From Escherichia phage vB_EcoS_HdH2, in sequence record NC_048748.1: a DNA stretch of 64,000 bases; one strand, 5' to 3'. Below, piece after piece: positions 2,741-63,779 of this stretch. Both the position numbers and the translations under genes were made by a program. Numbering within the stretch: position 1 is the first letter of the stretch; the number at the start of each line of letters is the position of its first letter. Below the pieces are notes generated by a model. The model did not search any database. It worked only from the letters and a program-made list of their open reading frames with translations, and was not told the origin of the DNA.

Positions 2741-5530
2741 GTGTTTTCTATCCTCCAAGGTCACGCTGGGTTTTCTCGTGATTTAGCAACAGGTATTTGG
2801 CGAGAAATCAAAGCGGAAGATTATACCTTTGCCAAGCGATTCTCGAAAGAGCATCCAGAAGGTAAACCAGCTTCTATGCCCTTCAAATTTGATGTAATAG
2901 AAGAGCACGACCCTCAAAGCCTTGCCGAAATGTTACCACTTATGAGACGTTTAACGTCTGACCCTCATATCGTTGCGGTACGAGGTCGGTGTCTTGCACC
3001 TAAAAATAACGTGCGACGTAAGAAAGGTAACTTTAATGTATCTAATCCTAGTAATATTATTGCTATGGACGTGGATGGTATCCTAGATACCGGTGGGTAT
3101 GACAAGTTTAACCTTGTTGGTATGGCCCGCCACATTATTAAGATGTTGAATAGTATTAGTGAGGACATGTTCCCTCTTGATGCAGGCTTTATAGCTCATG
3201 CATCGTCTTCGGCTGGGCTAAAACCAGGTATCCGAATGCACTTAATGCTAGAATCTAACGTCAAGGTAACTCAGGGTCAGTTAAAGTTCTTATTTACATC
3301 TATCAACGATAGTAGTAAGCAAAAATTTGGTTTTGATATTGCCGACTTAGCTTATTATTCATCTGTCCAGCTCCACTATTTTGCCGACCCCTTATTTAGT
3401 GATGGTATTGTTGATCCGTTTAAAGCGGAGAGTAAGCCACGTCTGGTGTATGTTAAAGGTTCGAAAGTAAATTTGCCCAATAATCTGGTTGACTATGAAA
3501 CAACTAGAGGGGAGTTTAAGGAAGAGTTTTATTCTTTACTTGATCAAATTAAAGGCAAAAAGATCGCGTCTGATAAAGTAGAAGAAACCATCAGCGAATT
3601 GGAAGAAGCTGAGGATGGGGTGTACCTGCGTATTATCCCCAAACTCTACCATAGAGCATTAGAGGATGGTGTTGATTTTGCATGGCTAGAACGTGAGATT
3701 AAACCCGCTTTATCTGAATATATTGCAACTAAAGATAACAGTCGTAATATTCAAGATTACTTTAATAACGGTCGTAAGCAGGCTCTCAAAGCGTTTGTTA
3801 ATAATTCTAAACGTGAGATTCCATTAAATCTGAAAGGTGTTCCGCTCAAGAAATTAGAAGTGGATTCTCCACCAGAAGTTCCGTACCTGAAGATTAACAT
3901 TGTGCCTCCAAAAGGCCATATAACATTTGTTAAAGCAAGTCTTGGTACTGGTAAGACTACGGCAGTAACTAAATGGCTGGACGCAGGTGTTCTTCCTGGC
4001 AACTTTTTAGCAGTTACAAATACTAGAGCACTGGTATCTTCAAACGCTAAGAAATTTAGCGCAGGACAATATGATAAGTCTGTAGATATGCTCAACTTTA
4101 AACGTGGAGCTATTGATCGTATGTCCACGACTATTCACTCTTTGCATAAGTTCAAAAGTTTTATTGGTCAAATAGATACCATTTTTATTGATGAATGTGA
4201 TGCTGTAATGAATGATCTATTATTCGCACCTGTTGTTAAGCAACGTCGCGAATGTATTCAAGTTCTACGTGACATCCTCATGACAGCTAAAACTGTAATT
4301 CTATCAGATGGTGATATTAGTGCCGAAACTATTGAAGCATATGGTTCTCTAATTGATTTTGATAAACCAGTAGCATTTTATAATCATCACCGTAAGATGC
4401 TGTCAAAAGCTCATGCTTATGAGTTCCCTGATGAATCCAGTATTTGGGTTGCACTTCAGACTTCCCTGGAGATGGGTGAGAAATCTATCCTAGTATCTGA
4501 CTGTGGGCCAGATGAACTGAATGAGAAGGGCATGGCGTTGCGTCGTAATACGGGTGCGTTAGTTAAGGAAATCCACTCAAACTCTACGTCTGATGTAGAT
4601 ATTAGACGTATTCTGGATTACACAACTAATGAACTAATTGATCAACAAATTGATTGCTTATTATGTAGTCCATCCGTAACGAGTGGTGTTGACTTTAACT
4701 ATTTTGATAACGTATTTGTTATTACTAGAACTAGTAATCAAGCGCCAAACATGCGCTTTCAAGCAATCAGGCGCGACCGTGGTGCTCAGAATATCTATTA
4801 TTTTATTGATAAATCCACTAGTGGATTCTCCGCAGGTTCTGAACAGTATAATATTGATGAAGGTTGGCTGGAGTTAGCACAGCAATTATACGCACGTCGC
4901 AGGGAGCTGGAATCTAGGAACTATACTAGTACTTTACGTTATTACTTGCTTGATCAAGGTGCAACTATTGATATTTTCAGCGAAAGCTGGGGAACTATTG
5001 AAGGTGCTGGTAAAGAATATACAGAAGAGCGAATCAAAGCCATTCTGCATTCAACTCCGGATTATTGTGCTCCACGTCATGCGGATGCGTATGAAGCTAA
5101 ACTACTTCTTGTTCGCTATTATCATCTTGAGTCTATTAAAGATGTAACAGTTGAGCATGTTGAACAATATATCAAAGATAAACCGAATGATCGAGCCGCC
5201 TTCTTCCATAAGATGCACGAGATGTTTTGGGAAGATATTAAGAAGTGTTCAAATGTAACCATTAAACCATTCATAGAAGCTCTGAAAGGTAAGAAAAAGG
5301 ACTTCTTCCTTAAAACAGGTCAAAGTGCTAACCCAAAATATGCTAGAATGTATCTTGGTATGATGGGTATTGGTAAGGATATGAACACTGAAAATATCGT
5401 AGACTGGTATAGAACCTATTGTAAAATCGAGTGTATGCCAATCCCTTATAAGTTCATGACTGACGAGGAAAGACATATGCACGATGAAGCAATGGCAGAG
5501 CTAGGTGCTAGAAATGACAGTGAAGAATAA
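2741..5530 (+). CDS. SF2 helicase-like ATPase, replication-origin-binding-protein type
   Basis: 929 aa; Walker A KASLGTGKTTAV and Walker B IFIDECD; GTG start 6 nt after AGGAG. Confidence 0.6.
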   Translation: MFSILQGHAGFSRDLATGIWREIKAEDYTFAKRFSKEHPEGKPASMPFKFDVIEEHDPQSLAEMLPLMRRLTSDPHIVAVRGRCLAPKNNVRRKKGNFNVSNPSNIIAMDVDGILDTGGYDKFNLVGMARHIIKMLNSISEDMFPLDAGFIAHASSSAGLKPGIRMHLMLESNVKVTQGQLKFLFTSINDSSKQKFGFDIADLAYYSSVQLHYFADPLFSDGIVDPFKAESKPRLVYVKGSKVNLPNNLVDYETTRGEFKEEFYSLLDQIKGKKIASDKVEETISELEEAEDGVYLRIIPKLYHRALEDGVDFAWLEREIKPALSEYIATKDNSRNIQDYFNNGRKQALKAFVNNSKREIPLNLKGVPLKKLEVDSPPEVPYLKINIVPPKGHITFVKASLGTGKTTAVTKWLDAGVLPGNFLAVTNTRALVSSNAKKFSAGQYDKSVDMLNFKRGAIDRMSTTIHSLHKFKSFIGQIDTIFIDECDAVMNDLLFAPVVKQRRECIQVLRDILMTAKTVILSDGDISAETIEAYGSLIDFDKPVAFYNHHRKMLSKAHAYEFPDESSIWVALQTSLEMGEKSILVSDCGPDELNEKGMALRRNTGALVKEIHSNSTSDVDIRRILDYTTNELIDQQIDCLLCSPSVTSGVDFNYFDNVFVITRTSNQAPNMRFQAIRRDRGAQNIYYFIDKSTSGFSAGSEQYNIDEGWLELAQQLYARRRELESRNYTSTLRYYLLDQGATIDIFSESWGTIEGAGKEYTEERIKAILHSTPDYCAPRHADAYEAKLLLVRYYHLESIKDVTVEHVEQYIKDKPNDRAAFFHKMHEMFWEDIKKCSNVTIKPFIEALKGKKKDFFLKTGQSANPKYARMYLGMMGIGKDMNTENIVDWYRTYCKIECMPIPYKFMTDEERHMHDEAMAELGARNDSEE

Positions 5531-53793: not shown

Positions 53794-53898
53794 TTGGGAA
53801 ATCTCGAAATTTCATAAGATTACACATGGAGGTGTGTCCAGTGGCCCCCCAGATGAGAATGAGTCTCATTACCGCCCGTTACTATTACCATGCTAACT

Positions 53899-53935
53899 GT
53901 TTCACCCTGCAACCATTTTAATTGCAAGGTGAAAC
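53899..53935. other. 13-bp-stem hairpin between convergent genes
   Basis: gtttcaccctgcaa / ttgcaaggtgaaac (one mismatch); no flanking U-run. Confidence 0.4.
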
Positions 53936-53952
53936 AATATCAACTTTAATTA

Positions 53953-54687
53953 TTACGCAACTTTTAATTTCTCGATATATTGTTGCGGGCTGCAACTATA
54001 TTCTGCGCGTTCTTCTTCTGTCATACTTTCCCAACATAATTGCAAGCGATCGGCTAGGAACTGATAATCATTATCATCCTCAAGAGATTCATCAATAAAG
54101 GTTTCACCTATCAATGTGACGCCGATTGATAGAATATCGTTAATAGCTTGCGCGTCCAGCGTTTTAAATCCATATGATGCCGCCGCTGATAGCACGCCTT
54201 TATGATCGTCGATCATCGTGAAATCAGCGTTCGGGTATAGCTGTTTGAATAGCTCAAAATAATGGCTTTTATAAATAGCGTCCTTACTGTGGTATATTTC
54301 GCTAACTTTATCAGCCGTAAAATATTTGTGAAGTGTATCGCGGGAAAATACACGGATATTACTATCCCCACGCCCTCGCAATCCTTGCTTGCGCAAATAA
54401 TAATAGTCCGACTTGCTCATCAGTCGAGCGGTACAAATAATGTTTAACGTGTTGGCGTCATTCATGCACTGGCGCATATATGTAACAAGCGGCAATAAAG
54501 TATCCTGCATTATTAAATCATGTTTACATGCTTCATTTTTATACTTATTTAAATCTAAATTCCCATCGCTATCAAAGCAAGGCGCTACGCGATGAAATGA
54601 ATTGATGATTGTTCCGTCCAGATCCCAAATCATGACGCGGGAAATATGCGGGAAATTACGGGTAATATTCGTTTTAACTTGATTCAT
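53953..54687 (-). CDS. dmp: HAD-family phosphatase, candidate 5'-deoxyribonucleotidase (dmp-like)
   Basis: 244 aa; HAD motif I MIWDLDGTIINS; located in pre-early-type block with A1-like gene. Confidence 0.5.
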   Translation of the reverse strand: MNQVKTNITRNFPHISRVMIWDLDGTIINSFHRVAPCFDSDGNLDLNKYKNEACKHDLIMQDTLLPLVTYMRQCMNDANTLNIICTARLMSKSDYYYLRKQGLRGRGDSNIRVFSRDTLHKYFTADKVSEIYHSKDAIYKSHYFELFKQLYPNADFTMIDDHKGVLSAAASYGFKTLDAQAINDILSIGVTLIGETFIDESLEDDNDYQFLADRLQLCWESMTEEERAEYSCSPQQYIEKLKVA

Positions 54688-54761
54688 TTTGTTACGTTCT
54701 CCGTTTAAGGGATTAAATTAAATTAATCCAGCCCACTGGATGGGCCGGACTATTCCAGCTA

Positions 54762-55154
54762 TTAAAGACCATAAGCCAACGCATCAGCGATAAAACTAAT
54801 ATCCTCACCTGATACATCGGAACGGATGCCCGCGCATGTAAATACCTTCGCGCTCATTAGCTGATCATCAAGGCAAGCGGGGCAAGGGGCAACTACTGCG
54901 AAAGCTAACCCCGATTTCACCGCGTCGATGATAGTCGTTTCTTGTTTCATCGTGTCAATATAAACGCCTTTCGCCTTGATGCGGCTGGATAGTTTGCCCG
55001 TGGTATAGGCAAAGGTAGTAACCTGCAAAGCGTCATTAAAATCTAATAGGTCATCAACAACGTGCCCCGCCTCAACGTGATACCGCTCACCATTAGAATA
55101 AACTAGGACGATGGAAGAATGAGCGCGATCGAATGGAATATTTTGCTTTTTCAT
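54762..55154 (-). CDS. hypothetical pre-early protein (A2 position)
   Basis: 130 aa, downstream of A1-like gene. Confidence 0.4.
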   Translation of the reverse strand: MKKQNIPFDRAHSSIVLVYSNGERYHVEAGHVVDDLLDFNDALQVTTFAYTTGKLSSRIKAKGVYIDTMKQETTIIDAVKSGLAFAVVAPCPACLDDQLMSAKVFTCAGIRSDVSGEDISFIADALAYGL

Positions 55155-55175
55155 ATTTATAAAACTCCAATTAGT

Positions 55176-55685
55176 TTAATAAGGGATATTAAATTCTTTA
55201 CACTTTGATTTAACCCATTCTAAAAGAATAGATAAATCATAATTGCCTTTTGAAACATATTTATTTGTTATAGGGTTTTTAATTTTTGCCCTGTAATATT
55301 CTCCCGCTATGGGATCAACTTTATCAAGATAAATATATTTCGGTAGTTTATTACGCCTTTTATAATCACTCTTATTTGTCATATTAACCGCATGAGTAAC
55401 TAGGCGTAAATTATTTATATCGTTGTTAACGGGGTAAGAAATTATTTTATGATCTATATCTAAATCAGGGTTAATTTCTTTATTAAATAAAACCCAAATT
55501 AAACGATGAGCTTTATATAATTCACCATTAATCATTACATCATAATAGCCTGTCTGATTTAATGTTCCCGCTACACTTCCAGCTTTCACACCGGGCTTAC
55601 TTATTTTCCATCGTAAAAATGATGGGCTAGATTCATCATAATAAACATTCTCGTTAACTTCATTAAAATCTATTTCTTTTGCCAT
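55176..55685 (-). CDS. free-standing HNH homing endonuclease
   Basis: YKAHRLIWVLF...DIDHKIISYPVNNDINNLRLVTHAVN; paralogue of 59474..59821. Confidence 0.75.
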   Translation of the reverse strand: MAKEIDFNEVNENVYYDESSPSFLRWKISKPGVKAGSVAGTLNQTGYYDVMINGELYKAHRLIWVLFNKEINPDLDIDHKIISYPVNNDINNLRLVTHAVNMTNKSDYKRRNKLPKYIYLDKVDPIAGEYYRAKIKNPITNKYVSKGNYDLSILLEWVKSKCKEFNIPY

Positions 55686-55755
55686 TTATATTCCTCCAAT
55701 TAATATTATCTCATTAATTGGAGGATTTAGGCAAATAAGGTTTTAATTTATCGGC

Positions 55756-57429
55756 TTACTGTACAAAGAATTTACCGTTCTTAAAGTCGATCAAAGTACG
55801 CTGGCCGTTCGCATAGGTAATAACATGCGTTTGCGTCCAGCTTGACGCGCCAACGTTGTAACCCATATCCAGACTACCAGACACGCCGGCAGTGTATACG
55901 CCGCCGTAAATGCTGGCGGTGTGAGTGTGCCCCGTGTTTAATTTGCCCAATTTCTTAAATTGCTTCGGATTGCCACGGCTCCCGTTAATGCCATTGTGAC
56001 CGTGTACGCCGCATTCAATGCCTGCAATTTTAAATGATTGGTCAGTGGTCAGGAAAATAGCGTTAAATTCACAACCTGCAACCTTGCGCAGCGCATAATC
56101 TAGCACGTTGAAAGTATCGTCTTTTTCTGCAATAGCTCCGTAAATCGCAGCATTAAGGCGGTGATATAGTTCCGCGTTGGCTGGATCGTCTTTAATGTTA
56201 GCATTACGATCATCAAGCCAACGGGATAACGCCAGATCATGGTTAGATTCAACAATGATCGTTTGAGCAAAATCGCGCTCCATTGATTCCAGTACGCGCC
56301 CGGTATCGATCAAATCATCAATAACCTTATCACGTCCGGCGGCGTATTGTTTTGCTAGGAATACACCAGACGCACGATTATGATGATTGCGTGATGTAAA
56401 ATCATGCACGTCATGCACAAACTGATATTTTGGCTTCAGAATATCAACAAGCCCGTAGGTGTCACCATGCCCCCACGACGCAGCGGCGCACTCCTCATCT
56501 AATTTTTCAGCGTGAATATCGCCATATTGTAAACCTAAAACGTGCCCCGTTGTTTCATAGCATCCGGCGGGAGTGGCGCAAATATTCAAATCGTAAAACA
56601 TGCCGCTTTCGTCCATCGTTTCAAGCTGGCGAACAAAAAATTCCCCGTCCTCGTCGAACTCAACGACAAGCGCACCAAAGTTATGTAGCGCCTCGGCCTT
56701 TTGCCCTGCTTTCTGCTGGATGTAGTTTTTAAGCGTTGCCGTGCCCGTTGAATACATGCGGCGCACTACTTCACCTTTTAAAGCTGGCACGCTTTCGGCG
56801 GTGATTTTAGCCGCCCCGATTGCCAGACCTTCCAGATTAAGCGCCGTTGCAGTTTCAGCGAATCCAGAAAGCGGATAATCTGCGGTAGGTAACACGTTAA
56901 TCTCCGCCATGAAAGCAAAACGGCGATTATTTAAAAACACGTTTTTGCTGCAAATATATTTATCAAATGCAGAATCATATTTGATTCCGTCCGCGCCCTC
57001 ACCATTTTGGAATCCGTTTTTATTATAAATATACTTAGAAACAAGCAAATCAGCGCCGATAAACTGGGCATATTGTTCAAGCGAGGCTAAAAAGTTTTTA
57101 TGCGGGAAAGTATTATTCTGAATCGAGGTAATAATAAAGCGTTTGCCTTGTTTTACTTCCCAGCTTTCCACCGTGCTAGAAATAACTCCGGCGGCTTCAG
57201 GGCGGTCATCGTTTTTAATAGCTTTTACAGTTTTTGCCGCTTTTGGTTTCGCTGGTTTATTTGCTTCCAGCCAATCACAAATAGCGGTGGAATGCTTTGG
57301 AGTATCGTAAACCGCTTTCGAAATATCGTCGCATACTTCCAGTTTAGTAGCGCGCAGACGTTTACCATAGAAATTGAAGTCAGCGGCAAGGTTCAGGATA
57401 ACGGTTTGTTTTTCTGCGGAAATAATCAT
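55756..57429 (-). CDS. A1: A1-like pre-early protein, calcineurin-type metallophosphoesterase
   Basis: 557 aa; motifs GLQYGDIHAEK, VESNHD, GVHGHNG, GHTH. Confidence 0.7.
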   Translation of the reverse strand: MIISAEKQTVILNLAADFNFYGKRLRATKLEVCDDISKAVYDTPKHSTAICDWLEANKPAKPKAAKTVKAIKNDDRPEAAGVISSTVESWEVKQGKRFIITSIQNNTFPHKNFLASLEQYAQFIGADLLVSKYIYNKNGFQNGEGADGIKYDSAFDKYICSKNVFLNNRRFAFMAEINVLPTADYPLSGFAETATALNLEGLAIGAAKITAESVPALKGEVVRRMYSTGTATLKNYIQQKAGQKAEALHNFGALVVEFDEDGEFFVRQLETMDESGMFYDLNICATPAGCYETTGHVLGLQYGDIHAEKLDEECAAASWGHGDTYGLVDILKPKYQFVHDVHDFTSRNHHNRASGVFLAKQYAAGRDKVIDDLIDTGRVLESMERDFAQTIIVESNHDLALSRWLDDRNANIKDDPANAELYHRLNAAIYGAIAEKDDTFNVLDYALRKVAGCEFNAIFLTTDQSFKIAGIECGVHGHNGINGSRGNPKQFKKLGKLNTGHTHTASIYGGVYTAGVSGSLDMGYNVGASSWTQTHVITYANGQRTLIDFKNGKFFVQ

Positions 57430-57526
57430 AGTAATAAAGCTCCATTAAAGGGATTAAAAACGTTTGTTATTGGCAAATATTGCCAGATATAACGCCGCTT
57501 ATTTACAGCGTTATAACTTGCAATAT

Positions 57527-57772
57527 TTAACTAATCGGCATAAGGCTAGAACTAACACCACAAGCAACGGCGGCAATAAAGCAAAGTAAGCCCAACCGCT
57601 TTGCTAATTTAGATTTACGTTTAAAATAATATGAATCTAAATCATTTTGAAAATAAGCGAACAATAATGAGGCCGCTACAATAAATAAGCCTAAAATTAG
57701 CGATTCAGTGGGGTAAAAGATCATTTTAATAACTCCAGTCAAAGGGAAATTATAGTGGGGAATATTCCCCAC
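57527..57772 (-). CDS. small membrane protein
   Basis: 81 aa; two hydrophobic helices. Confidence 0.5.
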   Translation of the reverse strand: MGNIPHYNFPLTGVIKMIFYPTESLILGLFIVAASLLFAYFQNDLDSYYFKRKSKLAKRLGLLCFIAAVACGVSSSLMPIS

Positions 57773-57781
57773 TAATTAAAT

Positions 57782-58189
57782 TTATTCGCCTGCGGCTTGT
57801 TTTACTTCATCGGCAACGCCTAACAGCTGCGCCACGGCGTCCAACGTTTCTAATTTTGCGCTTTCCAGTGATGCCAGATCGTCAACGTCTTTGATAATGC
57901 CGGAATCAATGGCATGTTTAGCGATAACACGCACATAATGCGCTTTACGAATGGAACTGCCGCCGCCAACTTTACGCGGCTTATCGCTTTTCTGATACGC
58001 TTTCGCGCTGGTCAATTTTGAGCGAACGGACACGGGGGAGGCCGCACCTACTGCTTTCGCAATCTCTTTCAAGCCGTCGCTATTTGCGAAATCTAAACCG
58101 TTTTCATTGATTAGCTGCTGATACATGGAAACAGCCTGCTGGGTGTTTTCTTCATTCCAAGAAAATTTTGCGGTTTTAACGTTAGTCAT
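57782..58189 (-). CDS. hypothetical pre-early protein
   Basis: 135 aa; AGGAG SD. Confidence 0.55.
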   Translation of the reverse strand: MTNVKTAKFSWNEENTQQAVSMYQQLINENGLDFANSDGLKEIAKAVGAASPVSVRSKLTSAKAYQKSDKPRKVGGGSSIRKAHYVRVIAKHAIDSGIIKDVDDLASLESAKLETLDAVAQLLGVADEVKQAAGE

Positions 58190-58290
58190 GATTATAACTC
58201 CTATTGAATTAATTTAAGGGATAAGATTAACATAATGTTAATCGTTATATCCCCCGAACTACTGGGGGATATAAAAGTAACACTATAAAC

Positions 58291-58542
58291 TTATGCTACA
58301 GCTTCCCATTTTTCGTTACGCTGGATAACCTTTACAGCGTCGCCGGATTTAACCCGAACGCTATAAATAGTTTTTCCGTTGTTACTCCGTTCCGTTTCAG
58401 CGTATACCGCATCAATTACATCAAACGGCATAAGCGCCGCGCCTTTGATGCGTTCGGTTTTTCCGGTTGCCTCATCCGTTTTAGTAACGAAAGGAATAAA
58501 AACGGATTGACCAATTTTAGGCGCATTAGTAACGTTTTGCAT
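58291..58542 (-). CDS. hypothetical small protein
   Basis: 83-aa ORF. Confidence 0.45.
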   Translation of the reverse strand: MQNVTNAPKIGQSVFIPFVTKTDEATGKTERIKGAALMPFDVIDAVYAETERSNNGKTIYSVRVKSGDAVKVIQRNEKWEAVA

Positions 58543-58774
58543 AGTATAAACTCCAGTTTATTTAGTGGATTGTTCCGCATTACCTGCTGTAAAAGTAGTG
58601 GCAGGTAATAAGTAACAATCCGCTCGCCATTATAATCAATTTAAGGAACTCCACTCAGGCCGCTATATCCCAGTTAGGGGGCGGGGCACATTATGGCAAG
58701 TACCGGCCGTCAAATTTTATCAAGTTATCGCTCTCATCGAACTGGGTACATCTTAAAGCCTATCGGCTAGGGTG

Positions 58775-58978
58775 TCAAACAATTTTTTGCAGTTTTTTAT
58801 GATTCTCTTTCAAGTCAATCATAATATTGCGCCAGATCATTTCCAACCCTTGCTGGCGGCCTTTCTTGTACTGCGTGAATCTATATTTTACGGATTGCTG
58901 AGCTATTGTCAACAATTTTTTAGTAGTACCATCCAATTTTTTGGCTGGTTTACCAGTTATTAAAAGCGTTTGTTTCAT
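58775..58978 (-). CDS. hypothetical small basic protein, enclosed by 24-bp inverted repeats
   Basis: 67 aa, Lys-rich; AAGGA SD. Confidence 0.4.
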   Translation of the reverse strand: MKQTLLITGKPAKKLDGTTKKLLTIAQQSVKYRFTQYKKGRQQGLEMIWRNIMIDLKENHKKLQKIV

Positions 58979-59473
58979 ATCTGCGATTCCTTATATAATT
59001 GATAAGTTTACCGCCGATAGACTTTAAGATGTACCCAATTTTTAAAGAGCGCGGCGGTAAACTTTCCCGCCGTGTAGTTCGTCATTGCCGCCCTACGAGA
59101 TAAATAATAGGGGATACCCAAAAATGGCGCAACCTTATTTTTGTAAAGAAATGTAAAGAAGGCAACACGCCCGGCGCTCACATAAGTTTAAAGGAAACGG
59201 GCGCGCGGATACCACAAAACACAGCAGATAGGCAAGTAATTTTTTCATTTATATTTGCCTTGCCCTACTTGACAAAACTTAAAAAGCTCGTGGTAGCGAT
59301 AAACGAGGGTAGGCAATGCAATGGCATACCTGAAAATTTTACCGCTTTCTAGGGCGTTTTAGGCGGCCTAAAATTGATTTAACAAATATTTAACAACTGC
59401 AAAATTGAAAAATAGTTGGAAAAGGTATTGACTTTTAAAAATCAAGACTAAATGAGTTATTTTATAAAATTAA

Positions 59474-59821
59474 TTAATTGACTTTCTTTTTATATTGTGA
59501 AGGCCGGTTTTTATTGTTTTCGGCCTGCGTTACTTGTCTAAGGTTATCCCCTTTATTATTTAGCTTGTTACGATCAATATGATCAATCATTAGATTACTA
59601 TCTATTTCACCATGTAATAGTAACCATACGACACGATGTACTAAATAACATTCTTTATTAAGTCGAACGATATAATAACCTTGTGAATAGTAAGTACCTG
59701 CAACTGTATCTTTCCTAACTCTTCCCTTATTGACTTTCCAGCGTAGTGACGTTTTCGATGTTTCATCATAATAAAAGTAATGATTAAACAAGTCATAATC
59801 CATTTCTTTATATTTACCCAT
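59474..59821 (-). CDS. free-standing HNH homing endonuclease
   Basis: YLVHRVVWLLLHG...DHIDRNKLNNKGDNLRQVTQAEN; N-terminus parallels 55176..55685. Confidence 0.75.
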   Translation of the reverse strand: MGKYKEMDYDLFNHYFYYDETSKTSLRWKVNKGRVRKDTVAGTYYSQGYYIVRLNKECYLVHRVVWLLLHGEIDSNLMIDHIDRNKLNNKGDNLRQVTQAENNKNRPSQYKKKVN

Positions 59822-59876
59822 TGTTATAGTTTCCTTATGTTATTAATTTAATCTCTATTATATTATATCAAAACCA

Positions 59877-59959
59877 TTAGCAGACTACCTAATGAGTTTT
59901 TCAAGTTTAATTAGCAGACTACTAATCCCGGAAAATCTCATTAGCCAACTAACTATTTC
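59877..59959 (+). repeat. three direct repeats of TTAGC(A/C)(G/A)ACTA(C/A)
   Basis: Copies at 59877, 59911, 59941 in the intergenic region upstream of the HNH gene start. Confidence 0.6.
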
Positions 59960-60085
59960 TTGAGTTATAATATAAATATAAATTAATGAGAAATAATCAC
60001 TATAAAAATAATCACTACGATAATAATAACAACAAGAAACTATCGGCCTAAGTGAGAACCACTATCATTTAAGTTATTCACAAAG

Positions 60086-60181
60086 TTATCCACAGCACAA
60101 AATGATTTGACACGATAGGCGGCGATATACGGGCTTATCCACAGACTTATCCACAGGTTATCCTACTGTATAAATATACAG
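60086..60181 (+). promoter_or_regulatory. left inverted-repeat module: three DnaA boxes plus a LexA-like SOS box
   Basis: TTATCCACA at 60086, 60135, 60147; CTGTATAAATATACAG at 60166..60181. Confidence 0.7.
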
Positions 60182-60448
60182 GGTAGAAAGGTAGTGTTAA
60201 CGACTGCAATCAATTTTATGCCGCCTAAAACGCTTTCTAACGAGCTAAATGCGGTGGGGTAATATTAAAGTAAAGCCGCAACGCGTCGCCCTGGTGGCTT
60301 CGCCGTGTTTTGCTCTTTACTATGCCGCTGCGCGGTTAGCATAAAACTAGGTGTTAGGCAAGGAAAATAAAAAGGTAAAATAATATTTGCCCCTAGAAAG
60401 AAAATACCTTTATCATTCACTCACCGATTAACGAGGGAGGCCGAACAA

Positions 60449-61426
60449 ATGAGGCTTTATAAACCAGATAACGCAACCGTCTTAAAAGGTGCATTGCGCA
60501 ACCTGCTGGATGGTAGCAGAACAACCAGCATTAAACACTTTGTTAACAAGGCCGAAGATATTCACCAAAATTTTTTTGATGATTTCGACGCCTATGATAT
60601 GAGTAGCTTTTTGCAACTATATAAGCAAGGGGCAACGATTATCTTATATAATCGAGATAATCACCTGCTTACTAGCAGGGGGCCGGACACTGATTTCATA
60701 ATCGTAAAAGGTAACACAGTAAAAGCCTATGATACTGGGGCGGGCTTAGAAGTTTTTTCAATAGAAAACTATGAAGCCAACCCCAATGATCTTTATGACG
60801 TTGAAAACTTTCTTGATTCATTTTGGCGTTATTTATCCGTTGGCTGGAATCGGTCAATTGGTGACGGGTATCGTCTGGCGGCTGTAATGGCTTTTGATGA
60901 TAACGGTAATTTTTTGTTACCGTCGGAAGTATACCCATACGTATATGATGGGGATATAGAAAGCGCGGGCTTTTCTTTCTGGAAGGAGGAGGATCAGCCT
61001 ATTGACAACACGGAAAAACATGCTGTAAATTCTAACACTCAAACCATTGAAAACAAAGGAAAAAATGCCATGACCAAGATCGCTAATATCGTTGCCGCTA
61101 ATAAGTCCGCCGTTGTAAATGCTGCAAAACTGGAAGCGGGTAAAATTGCACTGACTCAAATTACGAAAGTAGCGGCTAAAAAAGCACCGTTTATTATCAA
61201 GGGTTATATTGATACGCCGATTGGTCGGGTAGTGATTGCCAACCTGCTGAGCGTAGCGGTTGACCAGTACTCCCCTAGCAACCAAAAGGCGAAAGCGGTA
61301 GCGGATGCAGCTATGGAAGCGGCTATGTTAGAAATGGTACAAAGTTTTAACATCGCTGAAATGATTGACGAAATGGTGAAAGGTATTGATATTTCTACTT
61401 TTACCGTTAACACCGAAAACGAGTAA
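60449..61426 (+). CDS. hypothetical protein
   Basis: 325 aa; GAGG SD; terminator downstream. Confidence 0.65.
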   Translation: MRLYKPDNATVLKGALRNLLDGSRTTSIKHFVNKAEDIHQNFFDDFDAYDMSSFLQLYKQGATIILYNRDNHLLTSRGPDTDFIIVKGNTVKAYDTGAGLEVFSIENYEANPNDLYDVENFLDSFWRYLSVGWNRSIGDGYRLAAVMAFDDNGNFLLPSEVYPYVYDGDIESAGFSFWKEEDQPIDNTEKHAVNSNTQTIENKGKNAMTKIANIVAANKSAVVNAAKLEAGKIALTQITKVAAKKAPFIIKGYIDTPIGRVVIANLLSVAVDQYSPSNQKAKAVADAAMEAAMLEMVQSFNIAEMIDEMVKGIDISTFTVNTENE

Positions 61427-61480: not shown

Positions 61481-61544
61481 GTTATAATGCCTTTACACCG
61501 TTCGAGGACGGTTGAAAATTTTCCCAAAAATTTGGAGGCTTAAA

Positions 61545-62948: not shown

Positions 62949-63025
62949 TAATCACGGGGCGCAACTATCAGGGAGTGCCCCAATTCCCAAATGAGAATCA
63001 TTCTCATTTGACCGCGCCCGTGATG

Positions 63026-63093
63026 GTTAGCCCGCTAACGATTAGGGTGTTACGTGTTGCCTTGTGTGATCGTTAGCGGGCTAACTAATTTTT
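63026..63093 (+). terminator. large hairpin plus T-run after the small-gene operon
   Basis: gttagcccgctaacg ... cgttagcgggctaac (15-bp arms, ~30-nt loop) followed by taattttt. Confidence 0.45.
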
Positions 63094-63205
63094 AAGCCTC
63101 CTCCAATTTTGCCCTTGTTTTAGTATCCCCACCAAAATTAAACGCGTTAGAATGCGATTCAGGACGTTTTAGCGGTATATTAGAATTATTCACTACATAG
63201 GAATA

Positions 63206-63313
63206 CTGTATAAATATACAGTAGGATAAGCTGTGGATAAGTCTGTTAATAACGCCTCAAAATGGCTAGGATTCTGTCAAGTCAAATCGTGCTGTTAATA
63301 AGTCTGTGGATAA
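63206..63313 (-). promoter_or_regulatory. right inverted-repeat module: LexA-like SOS box plus two DnaA boxes
   Basis: TACTGTATAAATATACAGTA (19/20 to LexA consensus); TGTGGATAA at 63232 and 63305 (TTATCCACA on minus strand). Confidence 0.7.
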
Positions 63314-63511
63314 CTTAAATAACAGTGTTTCTCACTTCCATTCTTAAACGAGAATGATTCTCATTTGCATTCCACTGTCTAACCGATAATCATTTCCTTT
63401 CTTAAATGAGAATCATTTCACTTTTTGAATAGTTCTCATTTCACTTCTTAAATGAGAATCATTATCATTCGCATTCCACTTCTTAAATGATAATGATTCT
63501 CATTCAAAGTC

Positions 63512-63536
63512 GCAGGGCAATTGCCCTGCGCTTTTG
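63512..63536 (+). terminator. palindromic hairpin plus T-run
   Basis: gcagggcaattgccctgc followed by gcttttg. Confidence 0.5.
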
Positions 63537-63755
63537 TGCAAATCCGACATGTGCTCCAAGGGTTACGTGCTGGCGTGTATGTGCAAATCCGACAATTTTT
63601 GGTAGTGTGCAAATCCGACCCGAAAAATTTATAAATTCGTGAGAGTGACGAATCTGTCTCCTAAAAACTCCAGCAATCACGAACTGCGTTCGAATCCTGT
63701 GGAATTAGCTAGAGTATGTGCAAATCCGACATGTGTTGAGCTGTGCGAATCCGAT
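63536..63755 (+). repeat. five direct repeats of GTGC(A/G)AATCCGA(C/T)
   Basis: Copies at 63536, 63581, 63607, 63718, 63743 with irregular spacing. Confidence 0.7.
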
Positions 63756-63779
63756 GAAATTTTTGTGACTTCGATGAGA

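Follow-up and report, generated by a model that had tools for sequence, protein, structure and literature searches.

Pyrimidine-rich or A/U-rich tracts just upstream of a Shine–Dalgarno (SD) sequence bind ribosomal protein S1 and enhance translation, as for the internal cistron manY, which shows a bipartite ribosome footprint (10.1101/808485). ACA motifs upstream of the SD also enhance translation (PMC3879156). Here, we describe an element in a comparable position in Escherichia phage vB_EcoS_HdH2 (NC_048748.1), of which one stretch of 64,000 nucleotides (nt), hereafter the window, was analyzed. The element is a C-centered 11-mer with the consensus WWATCCCTTWAAT (ATCCCTTWAAT) and the core TCCCTT, as given by a weight matrix built from relatives only; it recurs ahead of the ribosome-binding sites (RBSs) of cistrons in the leftward pre-early operon and is conserved across the phage family. 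It shares with S1-dependent enhancers and bipartite RBSs (thrS, manY) a position just upstream of the SD and within reach of the 30S ribosomal subunit, a predicted single-stranded state, and a G-free, pyrimidine-centered composition; like manY, the motif-bearing cistrons are internal to an operon. S1 enhancers, however, depend only loosely on sequence, whereas this motif is a defined 11-mer with an invariant CCC, found family-wide and in one operon.

Positions 53900–59000 of the window are ~90% identical to the first 5 kilobases (kb) of phage T5, and match hundreds of T5-like phages as well. The T5 counterpart of this region is annotated as the terminal repeat with the first-step-transfer (pre-early) genes. 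T5 is a classical model phage that injects its DNA in two steps, a process for which A1 and A2 must be expressed rapidly from this operon; an 11-nt element at each RBS offers a testable handle on efficient pre-early expression and its later shut-off. The copies of the motif and the SDs that follow them are:

54715–54703, minus strand: copy TAATCCCTTAAAC, dmp leader, abutting GGAG; first C at −24 from ATG, gap between core and SD 4 nt
55189–55177, minus strand: copy ATATCCCTTATTA, T5.002-homolog leader, inside the last codons of the HNH gene; first C at −31, gap 12 nt
57456–57444, minus strand: copy TAATCCCTTTAAT, A1 leader, abutting GGAG; first C at −23, gap 4 nt
57750–57738, minus strand: copy ATTTCCCTTTGAC, T5.005-homolog leader
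58224–58212, minus strand: copy TTATCCCTTAAAT, A2 leader, core at 58221–58216; first C at −31, gap 13 nt
58572–58560, minus strand: degenerate copy CAATCCACTAAAT, T5.007-homolog leader
54699–54702 (dmp), 55165–55168, 57440–57443, 57733–57736, and 58198–58201, minus strand: GGAG SDs

The five solid copies all lie on the transcribed strand, and in each the core ends 4–13 nt 5′ of a GGAG that is followed by an ATG. Their first C falls either at −22 to −24 or at −31 from the ATG, which gives two spacing classes. The original prediction, made from the letters of the window, had quoted four strings of this kind; all four were found on the minus strand at the places claimed, each with its GGAG and ATG, and a fifth copy, in the T5.005-homolog leader, had been overlooked. 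Two of its gene labels have to be changed, because synteny with T5 and PHROG matches identify the gene it described by its length of 135 amino acids as A2, and the gene it placed at the A2 position as the T5.002 homolog. The degenerate copy ahead of the T5.007 homolog may not be equivalent to the others, because its AACAATCC is predicted to pair in a stem with the upstream GGATTGTT.

It is the placement of the motif, and not its window-wide count, that departs from chance. Both strands of the window taken together (128 kb) contain 29 instances of TCCCTT. Of seven minus-strand cistrons in a row, five carry one of these instances in their 30-nt leader; the remaining 24 instances all lack a following GGAG and ATG. 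For this placement, the binomial probability is ~3 × 10−10, or ~1 × 10−6 when corrected for all hexamers. The 8-mer ATCCCTTW shows no enrichment across the window (9 observed vs. 5.2 expected). When the whole window was scanned with the relatives-only weight matrix, the A2, A1, and dmp leaders took ranks 1, 2, and 3. A possible extra copy (TTCCTTAAATT, at ~58640 in the promoter-proximal leader) was dropped as not conserved, its T5 counterpart being TTCTTTAAATT.

Conservation was followed in 80 IMG/VR loci around A1 homologs, ~40 of them T5-like, and in four phages from GenBank that belong to other genera. Counted over distinct leader variants, WWCCC stands ahead of A2 in 28/28, A1 in 32/32, dmp in 23/23, T5.005 in 19/21, T5.002 in 16/19, and T5.007 in 15/27. 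Across the ~40 relatives the ATCCC core stays and the flanks vary. In the A1 leaders, the core is constant despite two unrelated upstream contexts; in the T5.002 leaders, it is kept over at least four upstream contexts, including one in which an HNH gene ends inside the motif, and is lost in a few. With the core kept in these two leaders next to unrelated upstream sequence, the motif travels with the downstream RBS, whatever gene lies upstream. In the A2 leaders, the spacer that separates motif from SD is variable; TTTCCCTTT is retained in most relatives in the T5.005 leaders; and the T5.007 leaders of relatives carry ATCCCC or ATCCAC/ATCCAT at the motif position. Entropy in the motif is below that of the upstream flank for A2 (0.26 vs. 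0.38 bits per column), A1 (0.54 vs. 0.77), T5.002 (0.48 vs. 1.12), and dmp (0.28 vs. 0.57), and is not below it in the T5.005 and T5.007 leaders. In the A2 leader, the motif forms an island of low entropy between adjoining spacers of 0.77 and 0.89 bits per column (n = 29 distinct relatives); the SD itself has an entropy of 0–0.27 bit in the leader alignments.

Conservation extends to other genera of the Demerecviridae. The arrangement of WWCCCW, A/U-rich spacer, and SD is found in same-operon leaders of Klebsiella (Sugarlandvirus), Pantoea, Proteus (Novosibvirus), and Vibrio (JSF12) phages, leaders that are otherwise diverged. The consensus differs by lineage: enteric phages have ATCCCTT, and Vibrio phage JSF12 has TAACCYTA. 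In phages that carry an A1 homolog but do not belong to the Demerecviridae, the leaders lack the element.

Specificity was checked in T5 by inspection of the leaders of the 107 coding sequences annotated in its first 60 kb. WWTCCC(T/C), with GGAG 6–18 nt later, stands ahead of T5.001, T5.002, T5.004, T5.005, T5.006, and T5.007, all of them leftward pre-early cistrons, and the 90 early genes examined all lack it; where early-gene leaders do contain CCC, the leader always coincides with the 3′ end of a transfer RNA gene or with an upstream coding region. T5.003 presents TTCCCC, then a hairpin, then the SD, and the predicted hairpin would bring TTCCCC and the SD together. Of the 73 SD-preceded open reading frames (ORFs) in the window, 8 have a relaxed form of the motif (WWCCCHW, at −45 to −11) ahead of them, and 5 of these 8 are the cistrons described here. 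Both counts support the original suggestion of a shared leader element specific to first-step-transfer genes. The rightward pre-early operon offers look-alikes only, and weak ones: AATACCTTTAT (60403–60413, plus strand), 36 nt ahead of the T5.011 homolog, and TTTTCCCAAAAATTTGGAGG (61519–61538, plus strand), ahead of the T5.012 homolog, whose CCAA/TTGG could pair with the SD.

The cistrons, identified by synteny with T5 together with Pfam and PHROG matches, and the promoters upstream of the motif copies are:

58978–58775, minus strand: T5.008/hdi homolog, by synteny with T5; first cistron of the leftward pre-early operon
58542–58291, minus strand: T5.007 homolog, by synteny and PHROG/Pfam
58189–57782, minus strand: A2, by synteny and PHROG; annotated as a DNA-binding protein, 135 amino acids
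57724–57527, minus strand: T5.005 homolog, membrane protein of 65 amino acids
57429–55756, minus strand: A1
55685–55176, minus strand: HNH endonuclease, in place of T5.003
55154–54762, minus strand: T5.002 homolog, 130 amino acids
54687–53953, minus strand: dmp
53953–58542, minus strand: the leftward pre-early cistrons, transcribed in the order T5.007, A2, T5.005, A1, HNH, T5.002, dmp
58912–58885, minus strand: strong sigma-70 promoter, TTGACA-16-TAAAAT, inside the T5.008 homolog; equivalent of T5 P-H22
58778–58750, minus strand: strong sigma-70 promoter, TTGACA-17-TAAGAT, within the T5 P-D/E20 fragment (4338–4664); "T5P1" of the second T5 record

In the T5 literature, P-H22 is known experimentally, the pre-early genes are treated as a single operon, and T5.002 and T5.007 are described as dispensable. 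The strong promoters lie 0.5–4 kb upstream of the motif copies. A consensus scan of 53800–60500 gives 32 promoter-like sites, none of which overlaps any copy, and neither of two independent T5 annotations places a promoter in the motif-bearing spacers. The weight matrix holds no −35 information and at most ~0.5 bit at −10 to −5 upstream of the core, and the putative −10 has T, not A, at position 2. With no −35, the wrong base at −10 position 2, and no overlapping promoter call, a sigma-70 promoter at the motif was ruled out. Because the promoters lie upstream, none sits at the copies, and the genes are described as one operon, the copies are intercistronic leaders of a single polycistronic messenger RNA (mRNA); the view of the element as promoter-proximal, put forward together with the original strings, is not borne out.

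Two observations concern the annotation of neighboring genes. The HNH homing-endonuclease gene (55176–55727, minus strand, leader included) sits between A1 and the T5.002 homolog; its own SD is predicted to be buried in a perfect 14-base-pair (bp) hairpin (CCTCCAATTAATGA...TCATTAATTGGAGG), with an unpaired probability of 0.0, and its final codons (N-I-P-Y-stop) are formed by the T5.002-leader motif. GenBank names for A1 homologs are inconsistent, and include "baseplate wedge subunit" (OM386660, ESCO40), "metallophosphoesterase," "DNA transfer protein," and "hypothetical protein."

Each copy-bearing spacer contains one or two stable hairpins, then an A/U-rich tract, then the motif. The hairpins are:

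54724–54752, minus strand: 13-bp hairpin in the spacer between the T5.002 homolog and dmp, equivalent of T5 "palindrome A," 8 nt upstream of the 13-mer copy
~57753–57774, 57471–57514, and 58227–58273, minus strand: similar hairpins ahead of other copies, from predicted folds

The motif itself is mostly unpaired in single-sequence folds. Alignment folds, with 20–32 distinct relatives per leader, show at most a 2-bp CC..GG contact with the SD (3–4 bp in the dmp alignment), and this in the three short-spacing leaders only; in the other two leaders they show no contact with the SD, and no fold of either type gives a consistent pairing partner. Sequestration of the SD was ruled out on the basis of this limited pairing (≤2 bp, or 3–4 bp for dmp), compared with an HNH SD that is fully paired. 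Pairing with the arms of the preceding hairpins was also rejected: in the window, the A2, T5.005, and dmp leaders show an apparent complementarity to these arms, which T5 and other relatives do not keep. Rfam 15 returns no match at the motif, and elsewhere in the region two sub-threshold matches (DapZ, CrcZ). The T5 nick site is likewise discounted, its annotated consensus (Pu/GCGC) being unrelated to the motif.

Two further described elements share features with the motif. The T7 gene 10 epsilon (UUAACUUUA) is also a phage leader element upstream of a strong RBS. However, the leaders here do not contain TTAACTTTA, and the motif matches Escherichia coli 16S ribosomal RNA (rRNA) by complementarity no better than chance would give, the best duplex energies being equalled or beaten by 12–71% of shuffled motifs; an rRNA-pairing enhancer of the epsilon type was rejected accordingly. 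The 3′ part of the motif (CnCUUUAA or CnCUUAAA) resembles boxA, the NusB/NusE site (GCUCUUUA), and a genuine boxA stands at the head of the operon. But the motif differs at positions 1, 2, and 4 of 8, where A/U, U, and C replace the G, C, and U of boxA, and all eight boxA positions make base-specific contacts; in the weight matrix, G reaches 0–6% at motif positions and 0–3% at the positions matching boxA. A boxA-like site for reloading of Nus factors was, for these reasons, set aside.

The strand specificity of the motif, its fixed relation to the SD, its position within reach of the 30S subunit, its lack of pairing, and its persistence with the downstream RBS all argue for an element that probably acts at the RNA level, on the initiation of translation of each cistron. 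More tentatively, and by analogy with S1-dependent leaders, the motif may represent the upstream half of a bipartite RBS, either an S1-type enhancer or a standby site. It would then be a cis-acting mRNA element, forming the 5′ edge of an extended RBS on each independently initiated pre-early cistron. As a G-free, pyrimidine-centered, and presumably unpaired patch, 22–31 nt upstream of the start codon, it could offer the 30S subunit a landing or standby site directly downstream of the intercistronic hairpins, most plausibly through ribosomal protein S1; a short GGAG SD might then suffice for efficient translation of each cistron within the first minutes of infection. The need for such a device could arise from competition of phage mRNA with the full host mRNA pool, from an SD of only 4 nt, and from the position of the cistrons behind stable hairpins on a long mRNA. 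The predicted single-stranded tract just upstream of the SD, A/U- or pyrimidine-rich, fits what is expected of an S1-type site.

Several points weigh against this reading. A loose sequence requirement, expected of a generic S1 site, is not what is seen: the CCC core and a flanking T are conserved in orthologous and non-orthologous leaders alike, and a generic site would not explain a specific CCC core. A general enhancer would be expected on other genes as well, yet T5 early genes do not use the motif, and neither do the remaining ORFs of the window, which are taken as late genes; competition with host mRNA at the pre-early stage only could account for both absences. It is also lost in some T5.002 leaders and degenerate in T5.007 leaders.

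Because S1 enhancers are not sequence-specific, and the CCC core here is fixed and confined to one operon, a second explanation, the main rival, stays alive, although we consider it rather unlikely: the motif could be an operator beside each SD for a specific trans-acting factor, which might be a small RNA (sRNA), a pre-early protein of the phage, or a host RNA-binding protein with a preference for C-rich single strands. Such an operator would allow co-ordinate control of the translation or stability of the whole operon, whether as privileged translation during host shut-off or as shut-off of the pre-early genes themselves. One element per cistron suits control of this kind, as does restriction to one temporal class and one operon, and the lineage shift of the consensus between enteric phages and JSF12 is as expected with a co-evolving phage partner. 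The arrangement is reminiscent of RegB and RegA of T4, where a class-specific RBS feature is found on many early cistrons, with a GGAG SD throughout. RegB, however, cuts within GGAG, and RegA binds over the start codon, whereas here the conserved element lies upstream of the SD. Neither protein has a homolog among the operon proteins by Pfam (eight proteins) and PHROGs (six), searches that returned only domains of unknown function, an HNH endonuclease, a DNA-binding protein, a membrane protein, and unknowns, and no RNA-binding domain; PDB sequence comparison of the T5.007 homolog, the T5.002 homolog, and A2 gave no informative match. Nor did a candidate emerge among the annotated T5 stable RNAs, since an AAGGGA(T) seed is absent from RNAI, RNAIII, RNAIV, RNAX, RNA1, RNA2, RNA2H, and RNA3, and antisense pairing by these RNAs was rejected. 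The C/A-rich or ACA enhancers silenced by GcvB offer a further parallel, as short C-containing elements directly 5′ of the SD that can serve both as enhancer and as repressor target (PMC3879156); but the present motif lacks ACA, and no cognate sRNA was found among the T5 stable RNAs. The known A1-dependent shut-off, moreover, is attributed in the T5 literature to transcription from pre-early promoters, and the rightward pre-early operon has weak look-alikes only. If an operator is nonetheless what the motif is, it would constitute a previously undescribed post-transcriptional layer of T5 pre-early control, with a family-specific regulator.

An RNA-processing signal is improbable. On this account, hairpin, A/U tract, and CCC would together mark or limit an endonucleolytic cut, for example by RNase E, leaving a hairpin-protected upstream product and a downstream mRNA with its 5′ end at or near the motif. 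The constant order of stable hairpins, A/U-rich tract, and motif in every copy-bearing spacer is what such a signal would look like, and intercistronic processing does occur in phage early operons such as that of T7. But the hairpins adjoining the motif have only 9–13 bp, and a typical RNase III substrate is longer, that of the T7 early type having a stem of ~20 bp with an internal loop; CCC is not known to belong to the preference of RNase E. The distance from hairpin to motif, moreover, varies from 4 to ~20 nt, while the distance to the SD falls into the two classes.

It is very unlikely that the motif has no function of its own and reflects shared leader ancestry, composition, or junctions at which gene modules recombined. 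The operon does have a mosaic make-up, and close relatives conserve entire leaders, so that conservation within the genus is, by itself, weak evidence. But within one genome, five leaders that are not homologous to each other share the motif, with the placement probability of ~3 × 10−10 given above; its C core persists in genera with otherwise diverged leaders; and CCC is otherwise rare in these G/C-poor leaders. A site acting in the DNA, either an internal promoter or a binding site for a protein such as A2, is the least credible of these alternatives: the TTWAAT that follows CCC does look like a −10 hexamer and A2 is annotated as a DNA-binding protein, but the promoter evidence above (no −35, no A at the putative −10 position 2, no promoter call on the copies, none in two T5 annotations) speaks against it, and the common orientation of the five copies and their fixed relation to the SD indicate action in RNA.

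In the literature covered, on T5 pre-early expression, boxA, and leaders, the motif is undescribed; Davison's 2015 review of pre-early functions falls outside that coverage, and an earlier mention there is therefore possible. If the motif proves to be a portable enhancer, it could find use in the design of enterobacterial operons.

The boxA at the head of the operon deserves separate mention. A boxA of the rrn/lambda type, CGCGCTCTTTAAAAAT (GCTCTTTAAAAAT), lies at 59050–59038 on the minus strand, upstream of the T5.008/hdi homolog, and also in locus L001 (4976–4988, minus strand). GCTCTTTAAMAAT occurs on the operon strand in 46 of 87 loci, all 46 of them T5-like; Klebsiella phages have two boxA copies, and Proteus phages (CGCTCTTTAACAAT) have four, plus one on the opposite strand. 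The presence of boxA suggests NusB/S10-dependent antitermination through a hairpin-rich operon. No paper linking boxA with T5 was found in the literature searched.

The ~23 nt that directly follow boxA (59011–59035, minus strand) are complementary to ~58745–58768, ~270 nt downstream, where the second arm overlaps the spacer, −10, and +1 of the TTGACA-17-TAAGAT promoter; in T5, the pair corresponds to "inverted repeat A/A′." The distance between the arms is 160–670 nt across lineages. Pairing is kept in four lineages (T5-like phages, Pantoea phages, Proteus phages, and another genus) with wholly different arm sequences. Variation in the arms of T5-like phages consists mostly of transitions that turn G-C or A-U into G·U, with one variant group that has a mismatch. 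Judged by this pattern of complementarity, the arrangement looks like a long-range RNA helix around the hdi-like cistron, in the style of the boxA and leader–trailer pairing of rrn operons. Alternatively, the promoter core may be present twice, in inverted orientation; its plus-strand copy is without a −35. Taken together, the motif, boxA, and the long-range helix point to a reliance of pre-early expression on devices that act in RNA—Nus antitermination, processing, and enhanced initiation—which current descriptions of T5 lack.

Finally, repeat-dense non-coding stretches flank the rightward operon, at 60075–60170, 63215–63320, 62985–63500, and 63540–63760. They contain inverted copies of the DnaA-box-like TTATCCACA, palindromes (aatgagaatcattctcatt), and direct repeats (TGTGCAAATCCGAC). 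The left-hand DnaA-box copies correspond to the annotated T5 inverted repeats C/D just upstream of T5.011, and the right-hand set (~62985–63760) matches the annotated injection-stop-signal region of T5.

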